DNA of 64,000 nt from Cyanidioschyzon merolae. Its lineage: Eukaryota. Made by a program: the position numbers and the translations under genes. Position 1 is the stretch's first letter; the number at the start of each line of letters is the position of its first letter. Under the pieces are notes generated by a model. That model worked only from the letters and a program-made list of their open reading frames with translations. It did not search any database and was not told the DNA's origin. This document shows, piece by piece, positions 378 through 46,760 of the stretch. The stretch lies in NCBI GenBank assembly GCA_000091205.1, contig AP006488.2. One strand, given 5' to 3'.

Positions 378-544
378 ACGCATGCGGTACCGTTGTCAAA
401 ATTTAAAACGGTAACGAATGTCGGCTCAACTTCCCGTGAGGAGTGCCGCTGCGTGTGGGTACGCTGTCATTCCAGGGGTAGAGAACCTGTTGCAAGCGGA
501 CGAAACCAGCGCGGTTGCCTCAAATGCTTACCTCGCTTTTTTTC

Positions 545-2791
545 GGTTATACTCAAAGCACTGAATTTTGGAACAGCTGTGCTGGCTCACCTTTTATGTT
601 TTTGTTTGTCTTTCTCTCAGGTCCCTCATAAAAGCAATCCATCCTTTGGGTGCGAGAACGCTCGCGGAAACACCAAAGGCCCTCACTGCCAGCTTGCGAG
701 CACAACGGCTTCAGTTCTACGAGTGAGTCACTCAGTGGGTTCATCAAGCGAATGAGCTACACGTCGCCTGGCCCTGATCCTGGGGCTCGGGAGCCCAAAA
801 CAGAACTTATCCAGCGCTACCCCAACGATTGCCTCTTCTTCAGCGCATTCCACTCCATGCGTACGCTGACAATGACTCCAAAACATGCCGCAGGATGTCG
901 GGTTTCGACACCCTTCATACGAATGGTGATGAAGAGTCACCGATGGAATACGCAGAAGCACGCGGCTATGGGAGGCCTTTGCGCGTCGCATACCTGGTCA
1001 TCGATTCCGTATGGAAACACGAGCTCGTATTCCGCGGGCAACGGACGTTTGCCGCTCTCGATGAGACACGTCCAGCTACGGACGCTCGACATGTGGCTAG
1101 GTACGCCACGAAGGGCATATTGCCGTCCTACACGACGACACAAGCGAGCATGAAGCCACCATGTGCTCCAGTGGCGACCACATCCCGCAGTTGCCACCGA
1201 GCCGCCAAACAGACATGTCCCTTCGACACACCTGATCGTTCGTCGACGCACTTTTGGCTTCTTGGTCCCACTCTCATCTGCCGCGATCTCAGAAGAGATC
1301 GCTGTCCAGTACGCCGTAGGTGCCATCGAGTACACACGCGAGGGCGGCGTTGAGCGGCTCGGCGATCCTGCATACTGGTTCAGGTTCAGAGCAGTCATAG
1401 GCCCCTTGTCGGTTGTCAACCGCCATACAAGCGCTCGCGGATCTATAGACGACGAGTCGTTCGCATCCGTGGACCCGAAAGCCGCAGAACGCCTTCAGAG
1501 CTCGCGCAGCTTCGTTCCTGGCGGATGCTCGCGCAGCTTCTCTAGCTTTGGTGCACCTCGTCCAGCAGCAGCTGTTCAGAGCAGCTGCGCATGCAGAGGA
1601 GCCAGCTGTGCGCATTCCTCGGGGCGTGCTCGAGCGAGCCTTTCCGAGGCACAGTACAGCTGATGCTCTGCACAGAGGATACGATACGGCGTGCTCGTGA
1701 ACTAGCGGAATTGCAAACAAACACATAAACACACTTACTCACATACACATAAACACAAACACACGTTCTAGCGTACCTTGACCTGCACGCTACCGCATCA
1801 GCGAACGCAAGTGCTACAGTATAGGTCCCTGAAGGAATCGAATGAGCACCACTATCCTAGAGCAGCTGCAGTTCCGCGCTGAGCGCTCCATGAGGCGCAC
1901 GCTTTTGATGCCGCATCCTACACTCAGTGGCCGAGAAAAGCGTGACTGATGCAGCGGATTCATGGCGCGTCGATAGAGCTAAACTGCGGAATAGTGGCGG
2001 AGACTGCAGTGGCAGCGGACTCGGAAGCGCTGCCCCAACGCCAGCCAGAGTCGCCCTCGCACCGAGCCAACAAGCTGGCTTTCGCTAGCGCGTTCCGCGA
2101 GTCGGAGAACAAAGTGGCCGATCAACTGCGTCGTTTGGAGGGAGCGTACGGCGTGGAGCACGCTACAGCGCACAGGCGCTTCTCTCCATTTCGCTTGACA
2201 CGAGCGTACGTCGAGTGCAGCGATCGGCTCTGCAGGACGCTCACCGACGCGTTCAGCACACCGTACGCACAGCACGAGCACGAGCACGAGCACGAACTCA
2301 CAACGAAACAGGTAGCGTGGACGAGTGTGAAGCAGTGCCGGACGCTCTAGACGGTGTACGGCAAGCTTGCCGGACGTCCGACGGCGATGCAACTGGACGC
2401 GGCAGGCTCTCTGGGGCGTGACCCCACCCCCCCGGCAGCGACGTACTGTAGGGCTCTCACTCTCCCCGAAACTCGAACGCCAGGCTCAGCGTCTGGAAAT
2501 ATGTCGGGCGTGTGGAGCGTCCAGCGAGTTTGTGCCGAACGAGTTCGCCAACGAATCCACGAGGTCTCAGTGTGGGCGTTGCGGTGAAACGCGACAGACT
2601 ACCGATGCAGCACTATCAGAGGCGAGTTGCCAGGAGAGCGTGTCCAACGGGTTTCCACCTGGAGTTAGACACCGAAATGGTACGTTTCAGGAAACCAGCG
2701 AGTTTGGTGTGTCGTTTATATACACCGGGATCGGTTCTTCTTCGCGGATACTGAACGATAATGGTTTTCAGCTATTCGATGCTAATGAGTA
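545..2791 (+). repeat. R1 dispersed repeat, copy 1 (2.25 kb)
   Basis: Near-identical to 7880-10145 and 14170-16423. Boundaries are where the three copies diverge: left 'GGTTATA(C/A)TCAAAGCACTG', right '...GATGCTAATGAGTA'. It contains a CA-rich tract, (CACGAG)n and a poly-C tract, with no convincing long CDS. The 3' part carries 'ICRACG...QCGRCGETRQTTDAAL', a possible degenerate zinc-ribbon/RuvC-III remnant. Confidence 0.85.
2267..2296. repeat. (CACGAG)n microsatellite, about 4 units, inside R1 copy 1
   Basis: Direct reading of the sequence. The same site has about 7 units in copy 2 and about 5 in copy 3. Confidence 0.9.
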
Positions 2792-3228
2792 CTGGCGTAC
2801 CACCCAAAAGCTGTACCTAGAAAGAATTCGTTTAAAATGTTTCATTCATAGAGAGGGATTCATGCAAGCTGAGGCAACCGGTTCCGAGGGGTCTAACAAT
2901 GAAGCCTCGTGGGCTGCACCCGGGCACTTGTCTTTTGTCTCGCAAAAGCATAAGTCACGTGTTTGTTCGGCTTTTCGTTTGCTTTGTGAGGTCGCACACG
3001 TGGGGCAAACTGTGATGCTATGGCCGGTAGGCCCTTTCTCAAACATCCGACAAGGGGAGTGTGCACGGTTATGCTGTCCACAAGCAGTTGAAAACGCTTT
3101 CTTGATATTCGCCCATCCTGTGTGTAGGTGGTCACGCCTCTGATTAGAGACGCCGGTAGCGCCGAAAGCAACAGCTCGCAAAACGTTCGCACCTTTTTCG
3201 GGAGCAGTCAGCACCCACATGTCTACTT

Positions 3229-7879: not shown

Positions 7880-9605
7880 GGTTATAATCAAAGCACTGAA
7901 TTTTGGAACAGCTGTGCTGGCTCACCTTTTATGTTTTTGTTTGTCTTTCTCTCAGGTCCCTCATAAAAGCAATCCATCCTTTGGGTGCGAGAACGCTCGC
8001 GGAAACACCAAAGGCCCTCACTGCCAGCTTGCGAGCATAACGGCTTCAGTTCTACGAGTGAGTCACTCTGTGGGTTTACCAAGCGAATGAGCTGCACGTC
8101 GCCTGGCCCTGATCCTGGGGCTCGGGAGCCCAAAACAGAACTTATCCAGCGCTACCCCAACGATTGCCTCTTCTTCTGCGCATTCCACTCCATGCGTACG
8201 CTGACAATGACTCCAAAACATGCCGCAGGGTGTCGAGTTTCCACACCCTTCATACGAATGGTGATGAAGAGTCACCGATGGAATACGCAGAAGCACGCGG
8301 CTATGGGAGGCCTTTGCGCGTCGCATACCTGGTCATCGATTCCGTATGGAAACACGAGCTCGTATTCCGCGGGCAACGGACGTTTGCCGCTCTCGATGAG
8401 ACACGTCCAGCTACGGACGCTCGACATGTGGCTAGGTACGCCACGAAGGGCATATTGCCGTCCTACACGACGACACAAGCGAGCATGAAGCCACCATGTG
8501 CTCCAATGGCGACCACATCCATCAGTTGCCACCGAGCCGCCAAACAGACATGTCCCTTCGACACACCTGATCGTTCGTCGACGCACTTTTGGCTTCTTGG
8601 TCCCACTCTCATCTGCCGCGATCTCAGAAGAGATCGCTGTCCAGTACGCGGTAGGTGCCATCGAGTACACACGCGAGGGCGGCGTTGAGCGGCTCGGCGA
8701 TCCTGCATACTGGTTCAGGTTCAGAGCAGTCATAGGCCCCTTGTCGGTTGTCAACCGCCATACAAGCGCTCGCGGATCTATAGACGACGAGTCGTTCGCA
8801 TCCGTGGACCCGAAAGCCGCAGAACGCCTTCAGAGCTCGCGCAGCTTCGTTCCCGGCGGATGCTCGCGCAGCTTCTCTAGCTTTGGTGCACCTCGTCCAG
8901 CAGCAGCTGTTCAGAGCAGCTGCGCATGCAGAGGAGCCAGCTGTGCGCATTCCTCGGGGCGTGCTCGAGCGAGCCTTTCCGAGGCACAGTACAGCTGATG
9001 CTCTGCACAGAGGATACGATACGGCGTGCTCGTGAACTAGCGGAATTGCAAACAAACACATAAACACACTTACTCACATACACATAAACACAAACACACG
9101 TTCTAGCGTACCTTGACCTGCACGCTACCGCATCAGCGAACGCAAGTGCTACAGTATAGGTCCCTGAAGGAATCGAATGAGCACCACTATCCTAGAGCAG
9201 CTGCAGTTCCGCGCTGAGCGCTCCATGAGGCGCACGCTTTTGATGCCGCATCCTACACTCAGTGGCCGAGAAAAGCGTGACTGATGCAGCGGATTCATGG
9301 CGCGTCGATAGAGCTAAACTGCGGAATAGTGGCGGAGACTGCAGTGGCAGCGGACTCGGAAGCGCTGCCCCAACGCCAGCCAGAGTCGCTCTCGCACCGA
9401 GCCGACAAGCTGGCTTTCGCTAGCGCGTTCCGTGAGTCGGAGAACAAAGTGGCCGATCAACTGCGTCGTTTGGAGGGAGCGTACGGCGTGGAGCACGCTA
9501 CAGCGCACAGGCGCTTCTCTCCATTTCGCTTGACACGAGCGTACGTCGAGTGCAGTGATCGGCTCTGCAGGACGCTCACCGACGCGTTCAGCACACCGTA
9601 CGCAC

Positions 9606-9648
<43 letters not shown>

Positions 9649-10145
9649 ACTCACAACGAAACAGGTAGCGTGGACGAGTGTGAAGCAGTGCCGGACGCTC
9701 TAGACGGTGTACGGCAAGCTTGCCGGACGTCCGACGGCGATGCAACTGGACGCGGCAGGCTCTCTGGGGCGTGACCCCCACCCCCCCGGCAGCGACGTAC
9801 TGTAGGGCTCTCTCTCTCCCCGAAACTCGAACGCCAGGCTCAGCGTCTGGAAATATGTCGGGCGTGTGGAGCGTCCAGCGAGTTTGTGCCGAACGAGTTC
9901 GCCAACGAATCCACGAGGTCTCAGTGTGGGCGTTGCGGTGAAACGCGACAGACTACCGATGCAGCACTATCAGAGGCGAGTTGCCAGGAGAGCGTGTCCA
10001 ACGGGTTTCCACCTGGAGTTAGACACCGAAATGGTACGTTTCAGGAAACCAGCGAGTTTGGTGTGTCGTTTATATACACCGGGATCGGTTCTTCTTCGCG
10101 GATACTGAACGATAATGGTTTTCAGCTATTCGATGCTAATGAGTA
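7880..10145 (+). repeat. R1 dispersed repeat, copy 2
   Basis: About 98-99% identical to copies 1 and 3. (CACGAG)n is expanded to about 7 units at 9608-9649. The poly-C tract is one C longer than in copy 1. Confidence 0.85.
9608..9649. repeat. (CACGAG)7 microsatellite inside R1 copy 2
   Basis: Direct reading. Copy number differs between the three R1 copies. Confidence 0.9.
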
Positions 10146-14169: not shown

Positions 14170-16423
14170 GGTTATACTCAAAGCACTGAATTTTGGAACA
14201 GCTGTGCTGGCTCACCTTTTATGTTTTTGTTTGTCTTTCTCTCAGGTCCCTCATAAAAGCAATCCATCCTTTGGGTGCGAGAACGCTCGCGGAAACACCA
14301 AAGGCCCTCACTGCCAGCTTGCGAGCATAAGGGCTTCAGTTCTACGAGTGAGTCACTCTGTGGGTTCACCAAGCGAATGAGCTACACGTCGCCTGGCCCT
14401 GATCCTGGGGCTCGGGAGCCCAAAACAGAACTTATCCAGCGCTACCCCAACGATTGCCTCTTCTTCTGCGCATTCCACTCCATGCGTACGCTGACAATGA
14501 CTCCAAAACATGCGGCAGGGTGTCGAGTTTCCACACCCTTCATACGAATGGTGATGAAGAGTCACCGATGGAATACGCAGAAGCACGCGGCTATGGGAGG
14601 CCTTTGCGCGTCGCATACCTGGTCATCGATTCCGTATGGAAACACGAGCTCGTATTCCGCGGGCAACGGACGTTTGCCGCTCTCGATGAGACACGTCCAG
14701 CTACGGACGCTCGACATGTGGCTAGGTACGCCACGAAGGGCATATTGCCGTCCTACACGACGACACAAGCGAGCATGAAGCCACCATGTGCTCCAGTGGC
14801 GACCACATCCCGCAGTTGCCACCGAGCCGCCAAACAGACATGTCCCTTCGACACACCTGATCGTTCGTCGACGCACTTTTGGCTTCTTGGTCCCACTCTC
14901 ATCTGCCGCGATCTCAGAAGAGATCGCTGTCCAGTACGCCGTAGGTGCCATCGAGTACACACGCGAGGGCGGCGTTGAGCGGCTCGGCGATCCTGCATAC
15001 TGGTTCAGGTTCAGAGCAGTCAAAGGCCCCTTGTCGGTTGTCAACCGCCATACAAGCGCTCGCGGATCTATAGACGACGAGTCGTTCGCATCCGTGGACC
15101 CGAAAGCCGCAGAACGCCTTCAGAGCTCGCGCAGCTTCGTTCCCGGCGGATGCTCGCGCAGCTTCTCTAGCTTTGGTGCACCTCGTCCAGCAGCAGCTGT
15201 TCAGAGCAGCTGCGCATGCAGAGGAGCCAGCTGTGCGCATTCCTCGGGGCGTGCTCGAGCGAGCCTTTCCGAGGCACAGTACAGCTGATGCTCTGCACAG
15301 AGGATGCGATACGGCGTGCTCGTGAACTAGCGGAATTGCAAACAAACACATAAACACGCTTACTCACATACACATAAACACAAACACACATTCTAGCGTA
15401 CCTTGACCTGCACGCTACCGCATCAGCGAACGCAAGTGCTACAGTATAGGTCCCTGAAGGAATCGAATGAGCACCACTATCCTCGAGCAGCTGCAGTTCC
15501 GCGCTGAGCGCTCCATGAGGCGCACGCTTTTGATGCCGCATCCTACACTCAGTGGCCGAGAAAAGCGTGACTGATGCAGCGGATTCATGGCGCGTCGATA
15601 GAGCTAAACTGCGGAATAGTGGCGGAGACTGCACTGGCAGCGGACTCGGAAGCGCTGCCCCAACGCCAGCCAGAGTCGCCCTCGCACCGAGCCGACAAGC
15701 TGGCTTTCGCTAGCGCGTTCCGTGAGTCGGAGAACAAAGTGGCCGATCAACTGCGTCGTTTGGAGGGAGCGTACGGCGTGGAGCACGCTACAGCGCACAG
15801 GCGCTTCTCTCCATTTCGCTTGACACGAGCGTACGTCGAGTGCAGTGATCGGCTCTGCAGGACGCTCACCGACGCGTTCAGCACACCGTACGCACAGCGC
15901 GAGCACGAGCACGAGCACGAGCACGAACTCACAACGAAACAGGTAGCGTGGACGAGTGTGAAGCAGTGCCGGACGCTCTAGACGGTGTACGGCAAGCTTG
16001 CCGGACGTCCGACGGCGATGCAACTGGACGCGGCAGGCTCTCTGGGGCGTGACCCCCACCCCCCCGGCAGCGACGTACTGTAGGGCTCTCACTCTCCCCG
16101 AAACTCGAACGCCAGGCTCAGCGTCTGGAAATATGTCGGGCGTGTGGAGCGTCCAGCGAGTTTGTGCCGAACGAGTTCGCCAACGAATCCACGAGGTCTC
16201 AGTGTGGGCGTTGCGGTGAAACGCGACAGACTACCGATGCAGCACTATCAGAGGCGAGTTGCCAGGAGAGCGAGTCCAACGGGTTTCCGCCTGGAGTTAG
16301 ACACCGAAATGGTACGTTTCAGGAAACCAGCGAGTTTGGTGTGTCGTTTATATACACCGGGATCGGTTCTTCTTCGCGGATACTGAACGATAATGGTTTT
16401 CAGCTATTCGATGCTAATGAGTA
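14170..16423 (+). repeat. R1 dispersed repeat, copy 3
   Basis: Near-identical to copies 1 and 2. It ends 18 bp before the stop codon of the convergent ApaG gene. Confidence 0.85.
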
Positions 16424-17472: not shown

Positions 17473-19399
17473 TTGTTTGGAGGTACACAGAGCACTTCAC
17501 GTTATCACACAGTTGTTCCCCAGGCAGGGGGTTCACCAGATCACAACGGATTCGCGAAGCAGCATCCACGCTCGAATCGGGAGCTCCGTGCGCCCTCGCC
17601 TGGGGCGAAGGCGCTCCCTGGGCTTTCTCTGACAAGCGAAGCTGACTCCGTGCCGGAACACCGGCCGGCAATGGGGTTGCCTCTGGGTGCCTGTGTCCCT
17701 GTGTGCATAGGATTCTGGAAGGAAAAAAACTTCGACTCTGGGGCGTACGCTCTCCTTGGCCAGAGAAGGTTTGGAAGCGGGGGCCTCTGATGTCGTCCTT
17801 ATCAGCTAGGTGGGAAATCTTTCGAAAATCGATTTGTCTATGAGCATCGATGTTCGTACTGAATCATGCCCATGTCAGACGGAAATGGAATAAGTCTCGC
17901 CTGGCTAGCTCGGACGTACACACTAACGTTTGTATCTCTTCCCACTGCCTTCAATACCAGACGTCGTGAGTTTTTTTCTGTGATTGCGTTCTTTTCCTCG
18001 CTCTTATTCCCTGTTTAGAACACGCCAGTCTCTCTTGGCCAACAAGATCCGTTCTTAGTAGTCGATGTATGTTGATGACGGCTTCAGAGTTCCGATTATT
18101 TCTCTTTCGGCAGCTGCCGACGCGCTGCATGCACAGATGATAGATATGAGTCACGATTCGCTTACAAGATTCATATTATTTTAATGTAGCCTCGAAGCGC
18201 CCTTCGCAGCGGTGACACTTGACCATGGTCAGGTTTTCACATATGCCTACCACCTCACCTACTCGTTCAAGGGCCGCCCTACGCCCTGTAAACGCATACT
18301 CTGTTGCTCGGCTCACGTCCTTGGCTGTTACAGAAGGCTCCGATCGATAACCCGCTCCGATTACGGACCCGGTGCCATACCCTGTGATCAGGGGCTTCAT
18401 CCGCGCGATCCCCTCGGCGGGAACGCTCTCCGCTGCACGTACTCCCTGTTCTGTGCTATAGAGGATTTGTGGAATGCCACGTTGTCCATGATGAAACAAG
18501 TCCCGAAACGAAGGTCGACGCTACAGACCAGATCCAGGAATTTCGATCTGTATATGCTGCTTTCGTGCAAACCGCTGTCGCACATTCCATTAAAAACGAT
18601 TGCTCCGATGGTTAAATTCCGAGTCCGAGACAGGTTCCCATACAAAACAAAGAGTCAGGAACCTTTCGGAGCGTACCCGTTGAGACGCATCACGCTGCTG
18701 TCGACTGCCGTTTCGTCGCTGGCGAAAGGACTGGAGGATTTGTCTTTCCAGTGGACTTGATGACATGTCTTGGCAAGTTCAATGAATACTCAGCATGAGC
18801 TTGTGCACAAGCCATCAGCGGGCATTGTATTATTCCCCCGTCAATGCAGCTGGCAAATTCGCTTCGCCTACTGGTCGCCTTGAAATAGGAAAACCGAAGC
18901 TTGAAGAATGCGTGGTTTGAACGCGTCGTTCGTTGGAGAAGGAGCACTGCGGAGGCCTCTAAGTATGAATGGCATGATGGAATCGGCTGTTTGTCAACTG
19001 CCGCTCATGGTTGTCGAGAAGCATCCCAATTCTCGTGATGTAACAAATTTCAGCGATAGCGAATCGAAGGATCCACAACAGAAAGACGACCGAGAATCCT
19101 AAAACTACACAAGAATCCCTTAGCTCCTACTTCTGCATCTTAAGTGTAGAGGCTGTACGCCTGGAAGAAAGTTCGGAAAAATCTATAGGCAGGAGTATAG
19201 CAAATGGTTCTACTCCTTTTGTTAATCTGATACGGGCTCGGTCCCGACGCACGTTCACGAACGTTGCAGCATTCTCAAGCAGTGCTGCCTTGCGGAACGC
19301 GTGTAGCACGTATTGCCGCTCAATTCCATAAAAAACATAATTGTCTTATTTATGTAGGCGTGTTTTGCCTTGTCCAGAATGACGCACTTGCACGCTGTT

Positions 19400-22300
19400 T
19401 GCCAACGTGGACAAAGATCGATTTGGACGTGCACGCTATCCAGCGGTCTTTGGAGCTTCGCGCACTGTTTCGGGGGTTTTTCTCAATGACAAAACGTTTA
19501 CATTTACCATGGATTTCAGATTGCGGGATGCATCATGGCTTTTAGGTTAGCATCCATCATGAAGCACCTACCACCAAGCTCCATTACCCATACTTCCTCT
19601 CGGATATTCTGGTCGTTTCGCACGCTCCATCGTGTGCCGAGTGCCTGCCGTGAGCACCCGCCATCGCGCTTAGACCGCTGAAGCAGATGCTGCGCGGAGA
19701 CAGAACGGTTTTGCCATACTACTGTGGGCGTCGGCTCGCGGAATCCTGTATCTGATACGCAATCTCGGCGAATTATCATTCTGGGAGCCTGCAAGCTGCG
19801 CAGTCAGAGGCGCTGTTTGCGACAGCGCAAAGCGATGTAGAAGGGTCCACTAGGACCCGGTCGACGCCCCAATGCGGCATACCTTCTACGAGTCCCAGAT
19901 TAAACTGCATTTCGGACGAGTCGCTCAGACCTTGCAGCGGCATATGTCACTTAAGAAACACGTAGCACCAGCCTACCAGACTAGTCCGGCTCGCGGTGCC
20001 TTCTGCCTAGAAGGTAAACTTTAGACAATACGGGAACATTTGTCCCCTTTGAACGTTAATCGTAGAGGAGGAAAAATATATAAAGAGTCGCAGGTGAATC
20101 CAGAGTCTCTGCTTTTTATTCTAAATAGCGCACTCGATACGCGCACATAGGACATCTGACAGTCACCGGATACGACGTCCATGTCGCCGTTGAAGGGAAA
20201 CGCGATCGTGATCAACAGCGTGTTGTACTGCCGGTAAAGTTGGACTTGCGTTAGAGTCATAGCAATGTATAGTTCTTCAATTCAATTTTGTTTCAGCCTT
20301 CAAGTAAGTATATTCAAGTGATTTTTCGCGAGTTCTGGTAGAAGCGTTCCATGAACGTTCTTTTCCAAAAAAATAAAAAAGGAAAGTTATGGAAGAGCAC
20401 GTCGACAATTGTGGAAGCCTGGTGTCGCCGGCTGGCAGAAAAAAACGAAAAACAGAGCCTATCCCGCAGGAACAGGAGAGGACGAAGAAGCGAAGGCAGG
20501 AGGCCCTACGTGGAAGGCTCCAAAAAAGACAACTGTACGACGAGATGGTGGTGAAATCCTGTCTTCGTAAACGTATCAGGGATCCATACAAGGAAAGGTT
20601 GCGAGACGCTATCAGAAACCTTGTCGATTCGTACTCCAAGAAGGATGTAAAGACATCGTCAGGACTAGCGCATTTGGCGAAGGAGATGTACGAAGATGTG
20701 GCGCATATGGAAACAGTCGAGGGTCTGGGCTAGTTCTTCAACATGACCATGATTCGTCGTCTGATGCTTGGTACAGGGGAATCTTCGACGAAAAAAGAGC
20801 TATTGCAAGCCCTCCGCGAAAACTTCGCGGAATTCCACTTCGAGGGTACTCGATACAGGGGTGACCGGGATATTTACACATGCGGGGCGATGAAGTTCAT
20901 CATGAACGTAAAGAACCATTTGACGATGAACCTCGAAAGTTTCATGATGAGCGCCGTGTTTGCGCTATACCTGGGCATCTCTCGCAAAGGAAAATGAGCG
21001 ATTATCAATGGCATCACGAACGATCGCCAGCATGAAAATGAGGTATAATTTGTCGACAAGAGGGCGTCAAAAGAGAGCACGGATGAAGCTTCTGTGATCC
21101 GTGCGGCTATTCAAGAGCACCGTGCAGTCTTAGGGTTGGTGAATCTAGCAGAAAAGATATCAGCGTTGAAAAAAGATAAGGAAAGATACTATCGCCTCGT
21201 CCTGCGCTATTTTGTGTTTCCGGACCGTGAACTCGAACGCAAGGCAGAGATGAAGCTGAGTGAGGAGACAAAAAAAGAGTGGTAGAGACGGAAGGCTTTT
21301 CTAATGGGGAAGCGCTTCAACGTCGTTCCAATGTGCAACATCAAGTCACATTTCGTGACTATCGACTAAAGAATCCTTCACGGCATCATGAAGGAGATGT
21401 GTCCGGAGTTCGATGTTAGCAGGGAGGAGTTCTCCGGTGAAAACCGGGAGACGTACTGGAAGAATATCTTCAGTTTCAAACGTCTGAGAGTGAGCAAGCA
21501 AAAGTTGTTTACTGGGATGATTGAAACCGATGGAGTAGCCTTGTGTATACACTATCGGCGGTTGAAGAGAGATCGTCCAGTTCCCCCCTCGGCGAACCAT
21601 GAAGATGAGAAAGAGGCGGATCTTGCGACGCAGGAGGTAGAGGATAACGACCTCGTCGTTGGCGTGACGAAGGATGAAGATGAGAAGAAGGAGGATCCTG
21701 CGACGCAGGAGATGCAGGATAACGACCTTGTCGTTGGCGCGACGAAGCATGAAGAAAAGAAGTAGGCGTGCCTTGAGACGAAGAAATTGCAGGATAACGA
21801 CTTTGTCGTTGGCGCGGACCCCGGAAACACAAATATCATCACCATCGCAGCACCGAAGCGTGCAGAAGAATGTACTGACGGCAACTTGCGTCCGAAAGAC
21901 ATGCGTCTTTTGAGGTTCTCGAGAGCGAGATACTATCAAGAATCCGGTATAATGAATGCAAGGAAGAAAATCGTTACGTAGAATGCAGGAATGAAGGATC
22001 ACCTGGAAGCTTTGAGCTAGGTGACAAGTCGAGGAGCGGACTTTGAAGCTTTTCGGAAATTCATGGAAGTTCGCATTGCGCATTGGGATGCGCTGTGGGA
22101 GGAGTATACAAAGCCCCGGCGGGCTCGTTTGCGAATGAATTTGTATTGTGGGAAGCAGCGGGCGTTCGCGAACTTTTTCAGTCAGTTGAGTGCCCTCAAA
22201 GAGGATGAAACTCAGCGGCTAGTAGTGGCGTACGGAGCAGGGCGCTAGATGACCCAAAAAGGGACTACGCCAGCTCCAACGACAAGAACATTCAAAGAGT

Positions 22301-22704
22301 GTGCACGGCGTTTTGTTACAATACCGATAGATGAGTTCCGAACGTCCTATACACACCATGAACTGGGATGTACACTTCAGCGAGTGGAGATGGAAAAGTG
22401 TCAGCGGAGCCCTGAGGAAATAGCAAAGTACGGACCACTGACGGAAGAGCAAATGGAAAGGAGGGTGAAAGTTCGTGGACTCCTTGCACTAGTAAGTACA
22501 ACGTCTAATGGCAAGAAACGAACGGAGTTTGTGAACCGTGACTTTAATGCCGCTATCAATATATGCAGATGTGCGGTGCTGGAGAGTAGACCTCCAAGGT
22601 CGACAAGAGTGAACTTTGTTGGACAACCCGTCAAAGTCGAACTATATGAGAATAAATTGGAACCAATAATAGGTGGCCGGTCCAAAAAGGCTGGGAGGCG
22701 TCTG
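19400..22704 (+). mobile_element. Family-1 near-full-length Fanzor/TnpB-bearing element (copy E): about 0.9-kb 5' 'F' region plus a 2.3-kb nuclease pseudogene
   Basis: The 5' part (about 19400-20300) is homologous to 54320-55100 and 46500-46760. The body is one reading frame from 20389 encoding NLS-like 'RKKRKTEP...KKRRQE', RuvC-I '[15 protein letters not shown]', 'IDEFRTS...C', RuvC-III 'EFVNRDFNAAINI' and 'LEPIIGGRSKKAGRRL'. The terminus is at 'GGCTGGGAGGCGTCTG' (22689-22704), where all five family-1 copies diverge into unrelated flank. The 5' boundary is uncertain. Confidence 0.55.
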
Positions 22705-22842
22705 CACATCAGCTGGAGAGTTCTTCTCCAGGGCCCCGGTCGCCACTACTGTACACTGCTGCCGGTAGCAACAAGTAGCAAAAGTTCAACCGACGAGTCC
22801 ACGGATGGATACTCGGCCAAAAGGTTCAGGTCACCGTTTTAG
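20389..22842 (+). pseudogene. Fanzor/TnpB-like RuvC nuclease (OrfB_Zn_ribbon-type) pseudogene
   Basis: One continuous frame; all seven ORF-track pieces start at coordinates congruent to 1 mod 3. It is interrupted by 10 in-frame stops (TAG at 20731, 21283, 21763, 21979, 22018, 22246; TGA at 20995; TAA at 21046, 21367) with no frameshift. The open frame continues 138 nt past the element terminus to TAG at 22840. Confidence 0.7.
21615..21830 (+). repeat. Internal about 72-bp x2.5 tandem duplication inside the nuclease ORF
   Basis: The repeated peptide 'KEDPATQE(V/M)(E/Q)DNDLVVG(V/A)TK(D/H)E(D/E)(E)KK' sits immediately upstream of RuvC-I '[16 protein letters not shown]' and duplicates its lead-in. 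Confidence 0.8.
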
Positions 22843-24088
22843 GGCTGCAGGGGCCTTCGTGGTGTGGACGGTCATCAGTGTCTTGCACCTCTACGTGACG
22901 CGGGAGTTGTTAGCGCGCTTCTTTGTCTCTGAGGTCCTACTGACGTTTATTCAGACACTTCTTAGCGCCATCTACGGCATCATTTTACTCCGCTTTGTTC
23001 GCGGTGCGGACTCGTTGCGCAAACTTTTTCGCAAAAAGCTATTGGTGAAGCTGTTGCCGGTTGCCGCTGTCGCCGTTTTCCGTGACGTGTCAAAGTTCGG
23101 GGGACTTGCGCGCATATCAGTCAACCTGACGGTCACGATACGCTCGCTCTCGCCGGTAGCGAGCGTCGTGCTGCAAAAGTTGTTCTGGGGCGAGGATTTT
23201 CCTTTGGAGACTGTCATCACTCTGATTCCAATCGTGGGAGGTGTCTCGCTCGCCTCGGCTGGTGACCTGCTCGAGGCAAGCGCTGCGTCAATGGAGCGCC
23301 TTCAAGACGTGCAGAGTGAACCTGCGTTACACTCTCTTTTGGGTCAAGGATTAGGTGACCTCAGTCGTTTTCTGGTCGGCTGCTTGTCCTGTATATTTTC
23401 TGTTTTCTTGGGTGTTGGTCATTCAATGCTCACGAAGCGACAATTTGCCGGGGCGCAGGACCGCTTGGATCCGCTCAGCATGCAGATTGCCCAGTCTGTA
23501 CTGTCCCTGGCATTCTTGGCTCCGTACTTTGGGCTAAGATTTTTTGTGGGCTGTTTTGGTGTGAGTCGAGGGAAGAATACTTTTGTACAAATCTTGACAG
23601 GGAGAGCCGTTCGTTTGTTTCAAGAATGCACAGCTTCCGGTTCAAGATTTCGGGCGTCAAAAATGGTTCTCCAATCACTGGTAGGGGCGTCCGGCGACCC
23701 TGAAATCATCCAACGGCGGAAGAGCCTGTTCTGCATGCTAGCGTTGAAAGGACTTGTGAATTTTGTGCAGTCGTTGTTCTCTCTGATTTCCCTGAACGAG
23801 CTCAACAATGTGAGTTTTACCATAGCTAGCTCGATGCGCAGAATGATCAGTGGGATGATCACCGTTGTGCTTTTTTATCGGGCAAGCGTCAGCTCTTACG
23901 GTATCCTGGGGATCGCCATGAGCATTGCCGGCTGCGTCTTGTATGAACGTACATCCTCTCTTGGACATCGAAACCCTTGGGGAAAGACTCTTAAATGGGA
24001 GCGAGATACGCATGAGCGAGCTCCAGAGAGGTCTTCCCGAGTATGCGAGACACATCAGGTGAGCATCTCTGATAAATCGCTGCCATGA
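22805..24088 (+). CDS. Triose-phosphate/nucleotide-sugar transporter family (TPT, DMT superfamily) membrane protein
   Basis: About 10 TM helices. TPT signatures 'VTIRSLSPVASVVLQKLFWGEDFP...LIPIVGGVSLASAGDL' and a C-terminal 'SFTIASSMRRMISGMITVVLFYRASVSSYGILGIAMSIAGCVLYE'. ATG at 22805, 100 bp after the element E terminus. Confidence 0.6.
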   Translation: MDTRPKGSGHRFRAAGAFVVWTVISVLHLYVTRELLARFFVSEVLLTFIQTLLSAIYGIILLRFVRGADSLRKLFRKKLLVKLLPVAAVAVFRDVSKFGGLARISVNLTVTIRSLSPVASVVLQKLFWGEDFPLETVITLIPIVGGVSLASAGDLLEASAASMERLQDVQSEPALHSLLGQGLGDLSRFLVGCLSCIFSVFLGVGHSMLTKRQFAGAQDRLDPLSMQIAQSVLSLAFLAPYFGLRFFVGCFGVSRGKNTFVQILTGRAVRLFQECTASGSRFRASKMVLQSLVGASGDPEIIQRRKSLFCMLALKGLVNFVQSLFSLISLNELNNVSFTIASSMRRMISGMITVVLFYRASVSSYGILGIAMSIAGCVLYERTSSLGHRNPWGKTLKWERDTHERAPERSSRVCETHQVSISDKSLP

Positions 24089-24389
24089 TAGGAACTTTCC
24101 TCCAATGATCGTGGTTCCTCTCTGAATTGAATACTGATTCACGATCTTCGGGTTCCAGGTCTTTGCTTTGCCAGTTCAGGAAGTACGTAGCATCAAAAAC
24201 TACTGAAGCAACCCACAAACCAGCAAGGAGTGTATATCTCATGCAAGGAACCGGGTGCAGCTATGTGGCTTGTAAACCGAAAATACATGGAGCGTCTTGT
24301 AATGGAGTTACTCCGGTGATATTTTCTATCACGAGCTACGTGTGCGGGCATAAGATTTCGACAAGTCCGGATCTTATAATCTTTTAACT

Positions 24390-25776
24390 TGTTTCTGGTC
24401 CACTCCCTCTGAGTCCAGTCGAATGCGTTCTCGCGGTGAAGAGCAAGCGACCGAAATCACTCTAGGATGTACGTTATAGATCGGAGACGAATTGCTTACG
24501 GGATATGTATGCTTTACTGAGTAGTGCAAGGGGGACAGCACCCCCCGCCCTGCGGCTCATTCGTATCGCAGTTCTCAGATGGTCGGGGGTCATTGAAAGA
24601 AACAAGTAGATGCTCTCAGCGCCAAGAGCTGATACTCTCCAAAGAGCTCTCGGTCTATGGTAGAAAACGACCCATTGATTAGCTTACGGAACGCAGAAGC
24701 GACGATAGTAGTCGCTGTGGGCGTCTCTGTTTCTCAACAGCTTGTTCAATGGTCCTGAAAACACCGGGATACAGTAGCAAAAAACTTTCCACTTCAGTCA
24801 CGACAATATTCCACGGCATTCGCTACTACAATCGAATTCCTGTAACGTCGCGATCTGTATGAAGCACAGGACGTTGATTTGTATTTTCAGCCGATGGGAC
24901 TTCCGTCGGACGAGAAGGTCGTGGGAAATATGGCCATTCGCGGAGCAGGGAGCTCGTTGTATTTAACATCGAATCTGGGGAGAAAGATGACATCATTATC
25001 TGTTCTGATTGCAATGGATTCATTCGACGGCGTCATTTCCACTCGCAGAGCAGGCGCATACAACAGCACCAATCACTTCGTCGAACCACTGAAGACTTTT
25101 TCCCTGAAGTCTGGCGAAGACCCTCTGCTGCACAACGTTGTAATTCACCATTCCGGTTGCGTTCGAGCTTTTGCTGATTCAATCGGGCTAGAGCTGCGTT
25201 TCATTCCATTGTACGCAACGTTGTTTTACCCCATCAAAGGACTGTTTTCTATTGTGAATCGTAATGATCGCTCCACTAGGCGAATCGCTGAAGCGTTCGA
25301 CACACGGTGACACAACGGGGCACATTTCGTCTTTCTTCAGCACGTCCTTCTCCCTCCGGGGAGGTCTCCACCCATGGGTATACACAAGTAGGTTCATTTA
25401 AAAAAATAAAAAATCCAAGGGAGAGTCATGGGCATGGAAGTCGAGGATCCTTGAGGAGCTTTGTTGCCGGCTTCGAAAAAACAAGGAACAAAAATCCTCT
25501 TCTCGCCAACCATCGAGAGAAGAAGAACAAGTGAAGAAGAGGAAGAAGAGGGAGACAGGCAAGAAAATGTGTTTGCTCGACCGTACGACAACGAGATTTC
25601 AGTGGCAGAGAGGGTATGCGTTCTAGGAATCCTCGCATTGATGAGTTCCACCAGCTGCAGTAACCGAGGAATTGACGAGATACGATTTTGTGGAGCAGCC
25701 TCTCAGGCACGAGGTGTGCCTTGATAACCTGGAACCGATAGCGGGCTGCTAGTCAAAGAGGGCTGGGAGGCGTCCG
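24390..25776 (+). mobile_element. Family-1 internally deleted non-autonomous copy A
   Basis: It shares about 700 bp of 5' 'L' region with copies B, C and D: hairpin 24530-24546 and the conserved block 25254-25330 'GTGAATCGTAATGATCGCTCCACT.GGCGAATCGCTGAAGCGTTC...'. It has an N-terminal-like segment ('NKNPLLANHREKKNK...EEEEEEG') fused to the 3' tail '...LEPIAGC*SKRAGRRP' and terminates at 'GGCTGGGAGGCGTC' (25761-25774). The 5' boundary is approximate. Confidence 0.55.
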
Positions 25777-27052
25777 TGACTGGGATTATAAATGCGCTCT
25801 ATTGTTGCGAAACGTTTTCGTGTCACTGACGATACAAGAAATTCGCAATTTCCAGTGCTTCGATGACTGCGTTGTGTATTTGGCAAGCTGCTGCTTGTCA
25901 GTTCCACGCGTTTACTTCTGAAGCGATCGTTGCGTCAGCTGCGAATCCCGTTGAACACATTTTTTGTGCTGCTGAGAACATGTCGCTCCTAAAAAGGAAA
26001 CTTGTTTTCGTTCTTGAGGAACTCCGAACCCAGCGGAGCCAAAAGTTTCCTACCGCCATTCATGTCGAATAAGCCTAAAAAACAGACGACTTCGGTACGG
26101 GTGCCAAGGAGCGGATACCCTTACCGATTTGATCAGACTCGACTACCTGACGCATACGTCGAAGAATGCAGTCAGCCTGCACAGTTCAACTCGGGGACGG
26201 CGAAGGGTTCCGAGGCGTCAGCGCCTCTCCATCGGTTAGCACACAACAGGGGACCTCTCTATCAATTCCAGCATTTATGAGCGATCTCAGAATCAGCGCA
26301 TCAATTCCATTTCGAGACTGAGCGAGAGCGGCAGTAAACCGTTCTTGAGTCGCCCCATTTCGCCAAAATCGCATGCTTGCGCATGCGCGCGAAGCCCTGA
26401 AAAGACAGTACCGAAACTCACGCTCGTCTGTTCCATTGGGCCGTATGAACACGTTATTGAGAAACCGCTAGATAGCAGGATTTTCTGCACCATAAAGCAA
26501 AACAAGTTTTTTCATTAAATAGCCAGTACGCTCACTCGTTCTACGGGTCACTGCGTAGCGCCTGCCCCCGGCGATGCACGGGTGCCGCTGCGCCCGATGC
26601 GCGTGCAGCATCGGGCGCAGCAGGCACGCATTGAGGATAGAAATGTCCATTGTATAGTTATGTCCCTAATTTTTATACCCGCGCCTCGTTACCGCGCGAC
26701 GCCGGTATTTCGAAATCGGAGGCATCGACTCGGTACGCTGAGAGCTTGACGTGTGCTGAGTCGGGGCGACGACGTTTCCGAGAGTATTCACTTTTCCGCG
26801 TTGTAATCAGCTTGCTTCCTATTGCTTACGTGGCAGTTGGGTGTCAAGTTGGAGCCCTTTGCCGTCGGGCCTGGAGAAGAGGTTCGTTTTCCGAACAGGA
26901 ATTCTGTCTTAAAGAATATGCTTCTATAAAACCGGCACAGCGCAAGTAGCGACTCTTTCTGTGGGTGAACTCTGGTACACGCACACGATTCCAAGTTCGC
27001 CTTGCGAGGTTGATGTTCTGAGAGATCCAACGGTGAACTCTTCTGAGCAAGT

Positions 27053-29769: not shown

Positions 29770-31253
29770 GTTGCTCAGGCAGCAGAGCGCCCGGGACTGT
29801 GAACCTAATCTTGTGTTTCAACTTGATTTTGTTTCATCCGCACTGTGGTGTATAGAAGGAGACAGAAACCACGATGCAATGTATCGCATATATTGTAGAC
29901 GAATGCCTGTGGGATATACTCTGTACTGAACAGTACAGGGAGGACTGCATTCCTCCTTCAGGTCAGTCATGCCGTCGTACGCAGATGGTTGCGGAACACT
30001 GCAAGAACAACGTATATGCGGTCTGCGCTAAAAACCCCATATTTTAGAAGACTTCTTGCCGTCAATGAAAGGAACCGAACCGTTGATCACCGTACGGAAC
30101 GCAGAAGCGACGAAAGTAGTCGCCACGGGCATCTCTTTTTCTCAACAGCTTGTTCGAGTCGTCCGGAAAACACTGGGATACGGTCGCGAAAAATGTTCTA
30201 GTCGAATCACGAACACTTTCTACCAAAATAGCGACGACAGCGTTCATAGAACGTCACAATCCGTGTAAAGCCGAGGGAGGTCGGTTTGTATCTTCAGTCG
30301 ATGAGACTTTATTCTGACGAAACCGTCGAAGCGTACAGGGGTATTCGAGGTGAAGGATCCCGTTGTACGTACGCTTGAACTCGAATAGAACGAGGACATT
30401 ATCTGTTCTAGCTTTAGTGGATATGTTTGGTGGCCTCAGTTTCGCTCGTAGAGAAGGCGCATAGAATAGCACCAATTTTGCCGAATCATTGAAGGCTTTT
30501 CCCCAGACGTCTGGCGACTTCCTTTAGCTGGACAACATGGCATTTCCCCCTTTCGGTTACGTTCAAGCTTTTGCACATCGTATCGGGCTAGAGCTGCTTT
30601 TCATTACTTAGTAATTTCCGTTGTTTTACCGCATCGGAGGAGTCTTTTCCATCGTGAATCGTAATGATCGCTCCACTGGGCGAATCGCTGAACCGTTCAG
30701 CACACAGTGAAACAACGGGGCACATGTCGCCTCTCTTCCGCAAGTCCATCTCACTCCAGGAAGGTCCTGACCCAGGAACATAAACAAGTGCGTTCGTTTG
30801 AAGCAACAGAGATCCAAGGGAAAGGTATGGGCGTACAAGTTGAGGATCCTGGTGTACCGTCATTGCCAGGTTCTCCAAAACAACGAAGAAAATCATCTTC
30901 TCGCCGATAATCGAGCGATGGAGAGCAACGCACGACGAAGAGGAGGATGACAATGAGTAAGGCGAGAAGAGGTGTTTACCCCACAGGACGACAACGAGAC
31001 TGTAGTGGCGTATAGGGCACGAGTTCGAGGAATCCCGGCAAAGATGAGTTTCACCATCGCCGGTAAATGCAGGGAATACGTAAATCGAGAATTCAACGCT
31101 GCTATAAGCACCAGACGATGTGCGATGCTGAAGAATAGACCTGAGGCGCTGACATGATCTAATTTTGTAGGGCAGCCTCTCAGGGTCGAAGTGCACAAGG
31201 AGCGGCTGACGCCGATAGCAGGATACCGGTCGAAACAAACTGGGAGGCGTCTG
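29770..31253 (+). mobile_element. Family-1 internally deleted non-autonomous copy B
   Basis: 5' L region with the perfect palindrome 'CTGTACTGAACAGTACAG' (29921-29938) and hairpin GGAGGA-ctgcat-TCCTCC (29939-29956). Conserved block 30654-30730. ORF 30972-31157 '...QDDNETVVAYRARVRGI...KCREYVNREFNAAISTRRCAML'. Terminus 'TGGGAGGCGTCTG' at 31241-31253. The 5' boundary is at or before 29770. Confidence 0.55.
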
Positions 31254-32813
31254 CGGATGGATAGTGATTCGCCCTGTGATCGCGAGGCTTTTCCGCACCA
31301 CTTATCACACTTGAATCATGATCGAAGAGTGGTAAATCGCATTGTTTCCCGAAAGACGAGTCATCAGTACCTGCGAAACATCTTCTCTACCATGTGAATG
31401 ACCATCTCCTGCGGTATTTTGAAAATGGAGTGCAATAAGTGATTTTTTTCGTTCGTATAGCTCAAAGAATTCCGCTCTTAGACGTGATTACTTGCGGCTG
31501 GCAAGCAATATGCACCGTCGCATTGCATGGTGCGAATCGTGACCGGGCAACGCAGTCATCGAAAACAAGAATGTGATGAGGTCCGACTAACTTTGCAGAT
31601 GCATCTCGAGAGACGCGTGCTTCCAAACGCCCCGAAATTAGGCTCAGCGTGCGCTTTCGAACAAGCTTCGCATGCAGACATGCTCAGCAATCGCACCCCT
31701 GGTCCATCTGATACGCGCTTCGGATTGGCGTACGGTGCGCTTTCAGAAAGGCCGTACTCGAAGCGAACATGCCGAGCAACTTTGCCAAGTAGCGATATAC
31801 CGCGGATCCGGAGCGCAGCCAGTCGCACGACGAAGCTGCCCACTATCTACAGAGTATACTGGGCATACGGACTTGGCAACATCCATTCATCGGGCGATCT
31901 GTGGCCTGCATGGGGTTTTCACTTGGTCCGCTCTGAAGCTGCTCGTAAACAACAACATGCCGTCCAAAACGCGGTTCCTATGTTGAACGCTGCATGGTGA
32001 TTCTATACCTCGCGATCCATTTCCATCAAAACCGGTAAACCTCGTCAAAACTGGATCTTCGCCCGACATATTGATGAGACTGAGACAACCACCTCATTAA
32101 CATATGGTCTCTGATGAAGTCGTCGTCCGTACGGGTGTCAAAACAACGTGTCCAGTAACGAGTCTCAACGATGCTCGGCTAAACGTGTACATTTCGAAAA
32201 CCTGCTGCGTGCCTCGATCGCCACACAGCGACATCCTCTGAGCAAACAGTTTTGTCTATATCTATACCATAATTTCCTTTTCTTTCATTCCACGGCGCGA
32301 TCGCTCCAAGCCGCAGAGGCTGCGCTCGCGGCGGTCCGCAGTGACGCGCCCTGCGATCTGTGCGTCGCCCTCTGTAGCATGCCTTGTGCCGACGGTGCAG
32401 AGCGTATCGAAGCTTGCGTCAAAACGACAACTCCGTCAGCATAACACGTTGTCGAAGGACGTATTTCGGAAACCTGGAGGGAGACTGTGTTCCGTGACCA
32501 AGCATCCTCGTGCGAGGTCGGCCGATTCCACTTTTAAGACGTTCAGCGGCGGCGTACGAGTGGAGAGAGATCACGCAACGCGGCAAGGTGTGGTGCGGCT
32601 GTTGCCAGGTTTCGTGCCTGAAGAGAGGCCGCGCTTGCCGTTAACTTCTGACCTTTGGCGACTGAAAAGCCATTCTAAATCACCAGAACGGGACTATTGG
32701 GGTTTGCAATCTTCCAGCAGAGCCCTCTGGGCACACATTTGACGTCCAGAGAACGGTGAAGCTCGGACAACAGCACCCGCCGGCAGCATTATTGCTCGCG
32801 TACTGTGCGCTCC

Positions 32814-46499: not shown

Positions 46500-46760
46500 G
46501 TTTTATTCAGTACGCGGTGAGTTATCCATCAAACCCCCTACTCCCAAGTTATATGACCTATGCTTCTTCTCGGATATTCAGGTCGTTTCGCACGTCCTAT
46601 CGTGTGTGCCTAGTGCCTGCCGAAAGCGACAGCAATAGCGCCTATAGCGCCGGTGCGGTCGCTGCACCGAGACAGAATGGCGTTGCCGTACCACAAAGGG
46701 CGTCGGCTCGAGGCTGCGACCGATAATACCGGCAGCAGCGCCCGCTGCAATCGATGCATC
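46500..46760 (+). repeat. Partial copy (F3) of the 5' 'F' region of the family-1 long element
   Basis: 'CTTCTTCTCGGATATTCAGGTCGTTTCGCACGTCCTATCGTGTGTGCCTAGTGCCTGCC...GAGACAGAATGGCGTTGCCGTACCACAAAGGGCGTCGGCTCGAGG' aligns with 19586-19740 and 54480-54600. Confidence 0.4.

Follow-up and report, generated by a model that had tools for sequence, protein, structure and literature searches.

The CMe-1A/CMe-1 family of Cyanidioschyzon merolae, published in 2013, comprises about 150 copies per genome of a repeat of about 3 kb, which are about 80% identical to their consensus and have no terminal inverted repeats (TIRs) (PMC3627910). According to Bao and Jurka, the 5' 635 bp of CMe-1A is TE-N2_CMe (PMC3627910). 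A rearranged RuvC-II, with G or P at the canonical position, has been described for Fanzors (PMC10530073). Among these, SpuFz1 (PDB 8gkh, 9ceu-9cez), GtFz and PpFz resemble the CMe-1 family in the rearranged active site with a Glu further downstream in a motif of the DEF/DEY type, in the basic N-terminus, and in the full-length fold match obtained with the model of a CMe-1 relative. SpuFz1 is, however, only 12-14% identical in sequence to the CMe-1 family and retains the CxxC...CxxC zinc-ribbon cysteines that the family has lost, while the family differs from it further in a variable acidic 25-residue tandem repeat preceding RuvC-I.

The likeness extends to the bacterial TnpB of the IS200/IS605 elements (e.g. 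ISDra2), in which a RuvC-based nuclease gene is also carried by a mobile element without TIRs, with a possible guide-RNA region that overlaps the ORF's 3' end and extends to the right end of the element, and with a hairpin in subterminal position on the 3' side. Unlike those elements, CMe-1A has neither TnpA nor any other transposase, its host is eukaryotic, the N-terminus of its protein is NLS-like, the RuvC-II Glu is relocated, and the CMe-1 family gives no Pfam OrfB_Zn_ribbon match. In the literature searched, no published report was found of a guide RNA, a TAM, nuclease activity or a transposition mechanism for the C. merolae family.

A degenerate copy of the CMe-1A family

The window, i.e., the whole stretch of DNA analysed, is 64,000 nucleotides long and derives from C. 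merolae (contig AP006488.2); the ORFs flanking the locus are exact matches to the strain 10D proteins BAM79506.1/XP_005535792.1 and BAM79507.1/XP_005535793.1. The locus is an individual degenerate copy of the already known family CMe-1A, catalogued in 2013. It is 3305 bp in size, as compared with 3169 bp of the published consensus (supplementary file 2 of Bao and Jurka 2013, Mobile DNA 4:12; PMC3627910), and in a global alignment it matches consensus bases 1-3169 end to end with 84.3% identity, a divergence that fits the published value for the family. The homology shared with metagenomic copies sets in at 19478-19490 and runs to 22756-22764. The element shares with CMe-1A the organism and the 5' module of about 635 bp, which also occurs as solo repeats; TIRs were looked for in it and none were found. 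It differs from the consensus in nine premature stops, the loss of the natural stop, the decay of the terminal hairpin, an additional 138 bp (two extra 75-bp repeat units) and eight small indels in non-coding parts. The coordinates of its features are collected in Table 1.

The 5' module and the first 635 bp of the consensus share 79.9% identity. The module is absent from many family copies, which begin at the equivalent of 20115-20173, and solo copies of it lie elsewhere in the window (54344-54910 and 46524-46713). The Fanzor1 gene (CMe-1) is the only gene of the element, no second long conserved ORF being present in it. Inspection of the 5' and 3' junctions of the copies for a target-site duplication (TSD) or target motif gave no clear TSD, in agreement with Bao and Jurka; the 5' ends of the copies start with a T-run, and beyond the 3' ends lies a loosely G/T-rich, TGGTG-like stretch. 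The element ends about 17 bp before the ATG (22805) of a gene for a phosphate/PEP-translocator-like protein. Searches of the window for further Fanzor copies (tblastn and HMM) revealed only short C-terminal remnants.

Table 1. Features of the CMe-1A copy and of its Fanzor1 ORF remnant
Feature	Position	Strand	Remarks
CMe-1A copy, complete but decayed, Fanzor1-bearing repeat	19484..22788	+	Global alignment to consensus
5' module, about 630 bp, counterpart of TE-N2_CMe by published description	19484..20113	+	Consensus alignment
Fanzor1 (CMe-1) ORF remnant, conserved family ATG to natural-stop position	20389..22731	+	9 premature stops, 0 frameshifts
A-rich tract encoding NLS-like basic cluster RKKRKT	20434..20455	+	Family frameshift hot spot; in frame here
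Stop 1, TAG from GAG/GAA (G>T)	20731..20733	+	10D-specific; L046 GAG; GAG in 25 copies, GAA in 4; published consensus GAA
Stop 2, TGA from TGG (G>A)	20995..20997	+	Common to L046
Stop 3, TAA from GAA (G>T)	21046..21048	+	10D-specific; L046 GAA; GAA in 32/36 copies
Stop 4, TAG from GAG (G>T)	21283..21285	+	10D-specific; L046 GAG; GAG in 33/36 copies
Stop 5, TAA from TCC via TCA (C>A)	21367..21369	+	Last step 10D-specific; L046 TCA; TCC in 33/36 copies
75-bp tandem repeat, 3 copies, 25 residues per unit	21593..21816	+	Acidic linker directly upstream of RuvC-I
Stop 6, TAG from GAG (G>T)	21763..21765	+	Common to L046
RuvC-I catalytic Asp codon, D477 in GADPGN	21817..21819	+	Intact; invariant column, alignment A1
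Stop 7, TAG from TGG (G>A)	21979..21981	+	Common to L046
Stop 8, TAG from GAG (G>T)	22018..22020	+	Common to L046
Stop 9, TAG from TGG (G>A)	22246..22248	+	Common to L046; adjoins on its 3' side AYGAG, the site of the RuvC-II Glu in canonical TnpB
Alternative RuvC-II Glu codon, E649 in DEFRTS	22333..22335	+	Intact; invariant column, alignment A1
RuvC-III Asp codon, D718 in NRDFNAA	22540..22542	+	Intact; invariant column, alignment A1
3' end region, coding C-terminal tail and about 57 nt non-coding	22627..22788	+	Candidate omega-RNA scaffold, degraded here
Family natural stop position	22729..22731	+	TAG in consensus and L046; CAG in 10D

The reading frame and its relation to Fanzor1

The original prediction of a single plus-strand frame at 20389-22704 with nine or ten stops, mostly TAG, and no frameshift proved accurate: the frame comprises 772 codons with exactly nine in-frame stops (six TAG, two TAA and one TGA), it is covered by a single tblastn HSP, and the multiple alignment shows no frameshifting indel in this copy. 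The motifs quoted in that prediction, from the basic N-terminus RKKRKTEP through RuvC-I to RuvC-III, including EFVNRDFNAAINI, are all present in the translation. The ORF is 86.5% identical in DNA to the CMe-1A consensus, and BLASTP aligns its translation with the published CMe-1 protein (734 aa) over 777 residues at 73.6% identity. In 10D the natural stop codon of the family has been replaced by a sense codon, so that the frame continues to 22842. The claim that the gene was inactivated only by stops holds within the ORF, whose sole indel relative to the consensus is the in-frame 138 bp. The non-coding parts of the element do have indels, namely seven small ones within the 5' non-coding 0.9 kb and, at 22736, a deletion of 2 bp. 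Such a contrast (eight small indels in the non-coding sequence of about 1.07 kb vs none in the 2.2-kb ORF) weighs against the neutral reading given below; it would be easiest to understand if a large part of what separates the copy from the consensus had accumulated in lineages that were still active.

Two parts of the ORF vary in length or frame within the family. In the A-rich tract of the N-terminal basic cluster L046, the orthologous locus from the Yellowstone metagenome, has an extra AAG. P0001/L001 is out of frame by -1 with the conserved ATG in an A-tract, and among the 36 non-redundant metagenomic copies there are 17 in which the frame is lost in the stretch from the conserved ATG to codon 28. 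The tandem repeat (Tandem Repeats Finder: period 75, 3.0 copies, 82% matches) accounts for a region 138 bp longer in the window than in the consensus, and its copy number differs among relatives, P0007 having more units and P0002 fewer.

A near-full-length Fanzor1/TnpB-like gene, as originally proposed, is supported by the profile match, by the model of a relative and by the similarity to CMe-1. A PDB search with the window sequence alone gave E=0.71 only for SpuFz1, and a profile search was needed: the profile of alignment A1 matched SpuFz1 (8gkh) with E=4.4e-11 over the RuvC half. Structure comparison relied on an AF2 model of the relative P0001, of moderate quality (pLDDT 60.8, pTM 0.41), whose top seven PDB matches were all SpuFz, GtFz or PpFz (probability 1.00, E from 5e-11 to 3e-7), the next match after the Fanzor1 structures having E=0.34; a WED-REC-RuvC fold is thus predicted for the ORF via this model. 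The RuvC-I Asp, the relocated RuvC-II Glu and the RuvC-III Asp are all present and invariant in A1. E649 lies 33 residues past the G (AYGAG) that replaces the canonical RuvC-II Glu, and this spacing together with the G at the canonical site fits the rearranged Fanzor active site (PMC10530073).

In a Pfam scan, no match to TnpB/OrfB_Zn_ribbon (PF07282) was obtained for the window copy or for P0001, P0002, P0030 and P0032. The zinc-ribbon cysteine positions read THHELGC ... STTSNG in the CMe-1 family, while the distant relatives P0033-35 keep CxxC...CxxC and score 26.9 bits (P0033), 25.0 (P0034) and 25.1 (P0035) with PF07282, the first above and the other two just below its gathering cut-off of 26.3.

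Origin of the premature stop codons

The origin of each stop was read from the family codons in 36 copies, from the ortholog L046 and from the published consensus. Five stops descend from GAG/GAA, three from TGG and one from TCC via TCA, and the changes responsible are transversions in six of the nine cases (five G>T and one C>A) and G>A in the other three, with no C>T; ancestry in CAG, CGA or CAA was sought among the nine stops and found in none. L046 is 98.5% identical to the window across the flanks and shares five of the stops, but it lacks the other four and carries a +1 frameshift of its own. Divergence between the two is about 2.8% inside the element as compared with 0.35-0.9% in the flanks.

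With a confidence that leaves little room for doubt, the locus can be regarded as an old, dead CMe-1A copy and an ordinary pseudogene, whose stops arose by ordinary neutral decay. It would have inserted upstream of the phosphate/PEP-translocator-like gene before the 10D and Yellowstone lineages split, and five nonsense codons would already have been present at the split, with neutral drift since. Thereafter the 10D lineage would have acquired a further four nonsense codons, its natural stop being lost as well, and the Yellowstone lineage would have gained the +1 frameshift; the RNA-like 3' region of the copy, with its terminal hairpin, has decayed too. The stops-only appearance may be ascribed to point substitution in an ORF rich in GAG, GAA and TGG, within a family in which frameshifting indels are rarer than nonsense changes. 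The 36 copies contain 84 frameshifts and 120 stops in total. At family rates about 2.45 frameshifts are expected in the window copy, the probability of none is 0.087, and seven of the 36 other copies likewise have none; the absence of frameshifts, which had been held to be unlike random decay, is not statistically remarkable. At strongly conserved sites about 3.9 stops before the split and 1.4 in 10D were expected, as against 5 and 4 observed. Against this reading, the 10D lineage has an excess of nonsense changes (4 of 26 polarised substitutions, p=0.02-0.05). It is almost certain that no directed mutational or recoding process underlies the stops-only pattern.

One such process had been put forward in the original prediction, in which the stops were taken for pure transitions from CAG, TGG, CGA and CAA, left by RIP-like or methylation-driven C>T and G>A mutagenesis of a repeat and producing nonsense codons without indels. 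The size of the family (about 150 copies) accords with this, as do the three stops in which TGG became TAG or TGA, and no other single class of change in the ORF relative to the consensus is as common as G>A and C>T (63 and 40 of 283, respectively). Yet the predominance of transversions among the stops does not fit the expected pattern, transitions and transversions number 155 and 128 relative to the consensus and 10 and 16 among the 10D-specific changes, and other copies carry frameshifts as well as stops, so that RIP-like mutagenesis is extremely improbable here. Equally improbable is a gene that still functions, its stops lying in short spliceosomal introns or being bypassed by read-through, recoding or RNA editing. 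The 772-codon frame is unbroken, the three RuvC catalytic codons are intact, and the GTAAGT on which the intron proposal was based does exist (at 22492-22497), but it codes for conserved residues (LVSTT), and all nine stops fall in collinear alignment columns in which homologues have conserved sense codons (E, W or S), none within an insertion. C. merolae, moreover, has very few introns, which counts against splicing. Reassignment of TAG, already discounted in the original prediction, is contradicted by its use as the terminator of the family's own ORF. The sets of stops differ between strains as close as 10D and L046, and the changes accumulated after the two diverged show no preference for any codon position (19/20/19; dN/dS 0.75, the values between family copies being 0.34-0.57).

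A somewhat less improbable, though still unlikely, modification of the neutral reading is that the 10D-specific stops reflect a mutational bias of the lineage or sequence errors, enriched in G:C>T:A changes of the oxidative-damage type. It is about as doubtful that, under such a bias, the efficient conversion of GAR and TCR codons to stops makes the abundance of stops and the lack of frameshifts partly an effect of the spectrum. All four 10D-specific stops are of the G>T/C>A class, which makes up 9 of the 26 changes in the 10D lineage, compared with 1 of 16 in the L046 lineage (Fisher p=0.06) and 8 of 101 older changes (Fisher p=0.0014), all small counts. Even with the 10D spectrum, however, only 1.4 stops are expected as against the four observed (p=0.046), and five stops, ordinary G>A changes among them, are older than the split. 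As to sequence errors, a look-up of the 114-aa ORF ending at stop 1 found no independent 10D assembly.

The locus is of small significance in itself, being a dead member of a family already catalogued in 2013, with a mutation pattern that calls for no special mechanism. Between the conserved ATG and the natural stop, every one of the 36 non-redundant Yellowstone copies is disrupted, so that finding an active relative requires a census of the 10D genome or rebuilding of the consensus. C. merolae lives at low pH and at temperatures of about 42-45 °C, and has efficient DNA recombination. With these properties of the host, a reconstructed CMe-1 consensus could be useful, the rebuilt protein being a candidate for a heat-tolerant eukaryotic RNA-guided nuclease. 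By analogy with characterised Fanzors, functional CMe-1 members would be directed to the nucleus by the N-terminal basic signal, the protein would bind an omega RNA transcribed from the 3' end of the element, and the RuvC site formed by D477, the relocated E649 and D718 would cut matching DNA.

The 3' end and a candidate omega RNA

In the better-preserved copies, the 3' region is predicted to form a long-range stem with inner hairpins and a terminal hairpin (RNAalifold, 22 copies). The fold was obtained with a cleaned 22-sequence subset, the raw alignment of 35 3'-end sequences giving almost nothing. The equivalent region of L001 folds with -61.5 kcal/mol (z=-2.38), as compared with z=-0.84 for the window copy. 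Covariation in this fold, assessed by pair counting, was not significant (86-161 of 500 shuffles reached the observed values), and the region has no match in Rfam. The terminal hairpin is found in most copies and in the consensus and is unrecognisable in the window copy, which in nhmmer matches only positions 1-142 of the 165 of the 3'-region model. Most of the region is also coding: its 35-codon tail is open in the published consensus and in most copies, and P0001 has a premature TAA ahead of it. A tentative proposal, rather less probable than its negation, is that the CMe-1 family represents an uncharacterised Fanzor1 variant of a thermoacidophilic alga, devoid of the zinc-ribbon cysteines, with a guide RNA located in the last 100 or so nucleotides of the ORF and the tail of about 57 nt that ends in the conserved terminal hairpin.

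An unrelated non-coding repeat of 1.4 kb has four copies in the window, and three of them likewise carry a diverged form of the 3' module at their 3' end. Should the proposal of a 3' guide RNA be true, this location would suggest that the 3' end alone suffices for mobilisation or guide production in trans.

A complete CMe-1A copy and its Fanzor1 protein

The element listed in the table aligns from first to last base with the published 3169-bp CMe-1A consensus, so that the boundaries of the original prediction (19400-22842) bracket one complete CMe-1A copy; the family itself was described in 2013. CMe-1A is present in Cyanidioschyzon merolae in ~150 copies, each ~80% identical to a ~3-kb consensus, lacks terminal inverted repeats, has no determinable target site duplications, and comprises another repeat, TE-N2_CMe, as its 5' 635 bp and a single gene, coding for a Fanzor1 protein (the consensus and the 734-aa CMe-1 protein are in the supplementary files of Bao and Jurka 2013, PMC3627910). 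Terminal inverted repeats are likewise absent from the window copy; translated conceptually, it shares 73.6% identity with CMe-1 across 777 residues. The TE-N2_CMe-like solo 5' modules in the window share 69-75% identity with 19494-20055 and are not followed by a Fanzor ORF, and a ~190-bp piece of the module (equivalent to 19549-19741) is inverted immediately 5' of the core in several metagenomic copies.

Features of the window (identity to the CMe-1A consensus where stated)
Feature	Window position	Strand	Remark
CMe-1A copy	19484-22788	+	84.3% identity
5' module	19484-20113		79.9% identity
Spacer			82.1% identity
ORF			86.5% identity
3' end			75.9% identity
Stops 1-9	20731 TAG, 20995 TGA, 21046 TAA, 21283 TAG, 21367 TAA, 21763 TAG, 21979 TAG, 22018 TAG, 22246 TAG	+	numbered 5' to 3'
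Solo 5' modules	54344-54910; 46524-46713		
~1.4-kb repeat	13342-11945	-	one of four window copies
~1.4-kb repeat	24442-25777	+	one of four window copies
~1.4-kb repeat	29854-31254	+	one of four window copies
~1.4-kb repeat	62500-63889	+	one of four window copies
Repeat of at least 2.1 kb	665-2791; 8000-10145; 14290-16423		three copies, 98% identical, spacing 6.3-7.3 kb
BAM79506.1	16441-17472	-	ORF, exact match to C. merolae 10D protein
BAM79507.1	22805-24088	+	ORF, exact match to C. merolae 10D protein

The identification of the gene as a Fanzor was right. All 35 relatives returned by a protein search come from JGI metagenomes; the best one shares 70% identity across 93% of the query, and the three most distant match Pfam PF07282 (Cas12f1-like TNB domain), to which the CMe-1 family gives no match. 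The family profile matches, in the RuvC half, Fanzor1 of Spizellomyces punctatus (SpuFz1), a protein of solved structure (E=4.4e-11). An AlphaFold model of the metagenomic relative P0001, of moderate quality (pLDDT 60.8), has significant PDB matches only among Fanzor1 structures (SpuFz, GtFz, and PpFz, E 5e-11 to 3e-7), the first other match having E=0.34. The catalytic residues, D477 in GADPG, E649 (the alternative Glu) in DEFRTS, and D718 in NRDFNAA, do not vary across the alignment and are all preserved in the window copy, while G (in AYGAG) occupies the position of the canonical TnpB RuvC-II Glu. This is the pattern that Jiang et al. 2023 (PMC10530073) described for the rearranged active site of Fanzors. 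Four zinc-ribbon cysteines, kept by SpuFz1 and by P0033-35, the distant relatives, are absent from the CMe-1 family, whose zinc-ribbon region (22340-22520, residues ~651-711) reads THHELGC...STTSNG instead of CxxC...CxxxxC.

Nonsense codons: origin and age

Translation of 20389-22704 (+) gives 772 codons in one frame interrupted by exactly nine stops (6 TAG, 2 TAA, 1 TGA). A 752-aa relative used as a tblastn query yields a single HSP in one frame, the family DNA alignment places no frameshifting indel in the window copy, and the sole difference in ORF length from the published consensus is 138 bp, in frame, within a tandem repeat. The non-coding part differs from the consensus by seven small indels 5' and a 2-bp deletion in the 3' end. 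The predicted single ~2.3-kb frame with nonsense codons and without frameshift is thereby borne out, with all the motifs quoted for it; the damage was correctly described, and the mechanisms proposed for the stops were wrong.

Those mechanisms were RIP-like or methylation-driven transition mutagenesis and the placement of stops within short spliceosomal introns. Ancestral codons were inferred from 36 non-redundant metagenomic copies and, independently, from the published consensus; for stops 1-9 in order they are GAG/GAA, TGG, GAA, GAG, TCC (via TCA), GAG, TGG, GAG, and TGG. Six stops thus arose by transversion (five G>T, one C>A), three by G>A, and none by C>T, and the whole ORF differs from the consensus by 155 transitions and 128 transversions, which rules out a RIP-like or methylation origin. 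Introns are ruled out as well, because in a collinear alignment the homologues have conserved sense residues at all nine stop columns.

The age of the damage is indicated by L046, a locus on contig Ga0078972_1000969 of a Yellowstone metagenome (PMC8986864). It is 98.5% identical to window 18000-24500, both flanks included, and hence is this very insertion as carried by a sister population. Stops 2, 6, 7, 8, and 9 are common to strain 10D and L046, which has sense codons at stops 1, 3, 4, and 5 (GAG, GAA, GAG, and TCA), its own +1 frameshift after 21296, and TAG at the natural stop (22729-22731), where 10D has CAG. Divergence between the two is ~2.8% within the element vs 0.35-0.9% in the flanks, the differences are spread 19/20/19 over codon positions, and dN/dS is 0.75 (0.34-0.57 between family copies). 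By the time the two populations separated the copy was already dead, and it has since evolved neutrally, as indicated by the divergence, the codon-position spread, and dN/dS.

At strongly conserved sites the older changes (n=101) predict 3.9 stops, with 5 observed, and the 10D-specific changes (n=26) predict 1.4, with 4 observed (p=0.02-0.05). Frameshifting indels number 84 and in-frame stops 120 in the 36 other copies, of which seven are frameshift-free between codons 28 and 744. Scaled by substitutions, 2.45 frameshifts are expected in the window copy (P(0)=0.087), and P(0) falls to roughly 0.05 when the N-terminal A-rich tract is counted as a further frameshift hot spot. The stops-only pattern lies at the edge of ordinary decay, yet within it. 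An oddity is seen among substitutions in 20400-22437 polarised against L046, where G:C>T:A changes make up 9/26 of those specific to 10D vs 1/16 in the Yellowstone lineage and 8/101 of the older ones; all four 10D-specific stops are of this class.

None of the relatives recovered is intact. An uninterrupted 752-codon frame occurs in one copy only, that of P0001 (locus L001), and this copy too is damaged: it is -1 out of frame with the conserved ATG in the A-rich tract and ends 35 codons early by CAA>TAA. Some 10D copies of CMe-1A are intact according to Bao and Jurka (PMC3627910). The A-rich tract (20434-20455) encodes the NLS-like basic cluster and differs in length among copies, 17/36 being out of frame there; this variation (L001:5940-6010 in the P0001 locus) may reflect decay, assembly error, or slippage. 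Copy number also varies in a 75-bp tandem repeat (25 acidic residues; 21593-21816) immediately 5' of the RuvC-I motif, with ~1 unit in the published consensus, 3 in the window copy, and ~6 in the relative P0007.

The 3' end and a candidate omega RNA

Most copies and the consensus share a conserved 3' stretch, consisting of a coding 35-residue tail ending in TAG and then ~57 nt with GCCACTACTGTACAC and a terminal hairpin, which occurs in two forms, CGTCGTTCGACTTTCGAACGGCG and the GCGTTTTTCTTTTGAAAGGCG variant. The consensus fold of the cleaned alignment has a long-range stem, CAGTAGTGGGTGG paired with CCGCCACTACTG, together with inner hairpins and the terminal hairpin. The 3' region of one well-preserved copy folds better than shuffles (z=-2.38); covariation in the fold is not significant, and an Rfam search of the region gave no family match. 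TnpB and other Fanzors suggest, by analogy, that this is the likely omega-RNA region. In the window copy the long-range stem has G>A mismatches and no recognisable terminal hairpin remains; its fold does not surpass shuffles (z=-0.84), and the nhmmer match is limited to positions 1-142 of 165.

Neighbouring genes and other repeats

The accessions of the flanking genes are consecutive, so no annotated gene lies between them. Only ~17 bp (22789-22805) separate the end of the CMe-1A copy from the ATG of BAM79507.1, a phosphate/PEP-translocator-like gene, so that the 3' end of the transposon makes up most of this gene's promoter region, in 10D as well as in the Yellowstone population.

The ~1.4-kb repeat is a separate family (pairwise identity of the four window copies 65-73%). 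Its ~1.1-kb upstream part shows no Fanzor similarity; in three of the four copies the last ~200-250 bp resemble the Fanzor element 3' end (HMM E 1e-11 to 3e-9), from the remnant of the RuvC-III coding sequence into the first part of the tail. In each repeat of at least 2.1 kb an (HE)n run occurs within a short ORF that weakly resembles the Fanzor AYG...KEC...DEFRTS region (EGAYGV...YVECSDR...DAFSTPY, HMM E 2e-4 to 2e-3), a resemblance that is possibly spurious.
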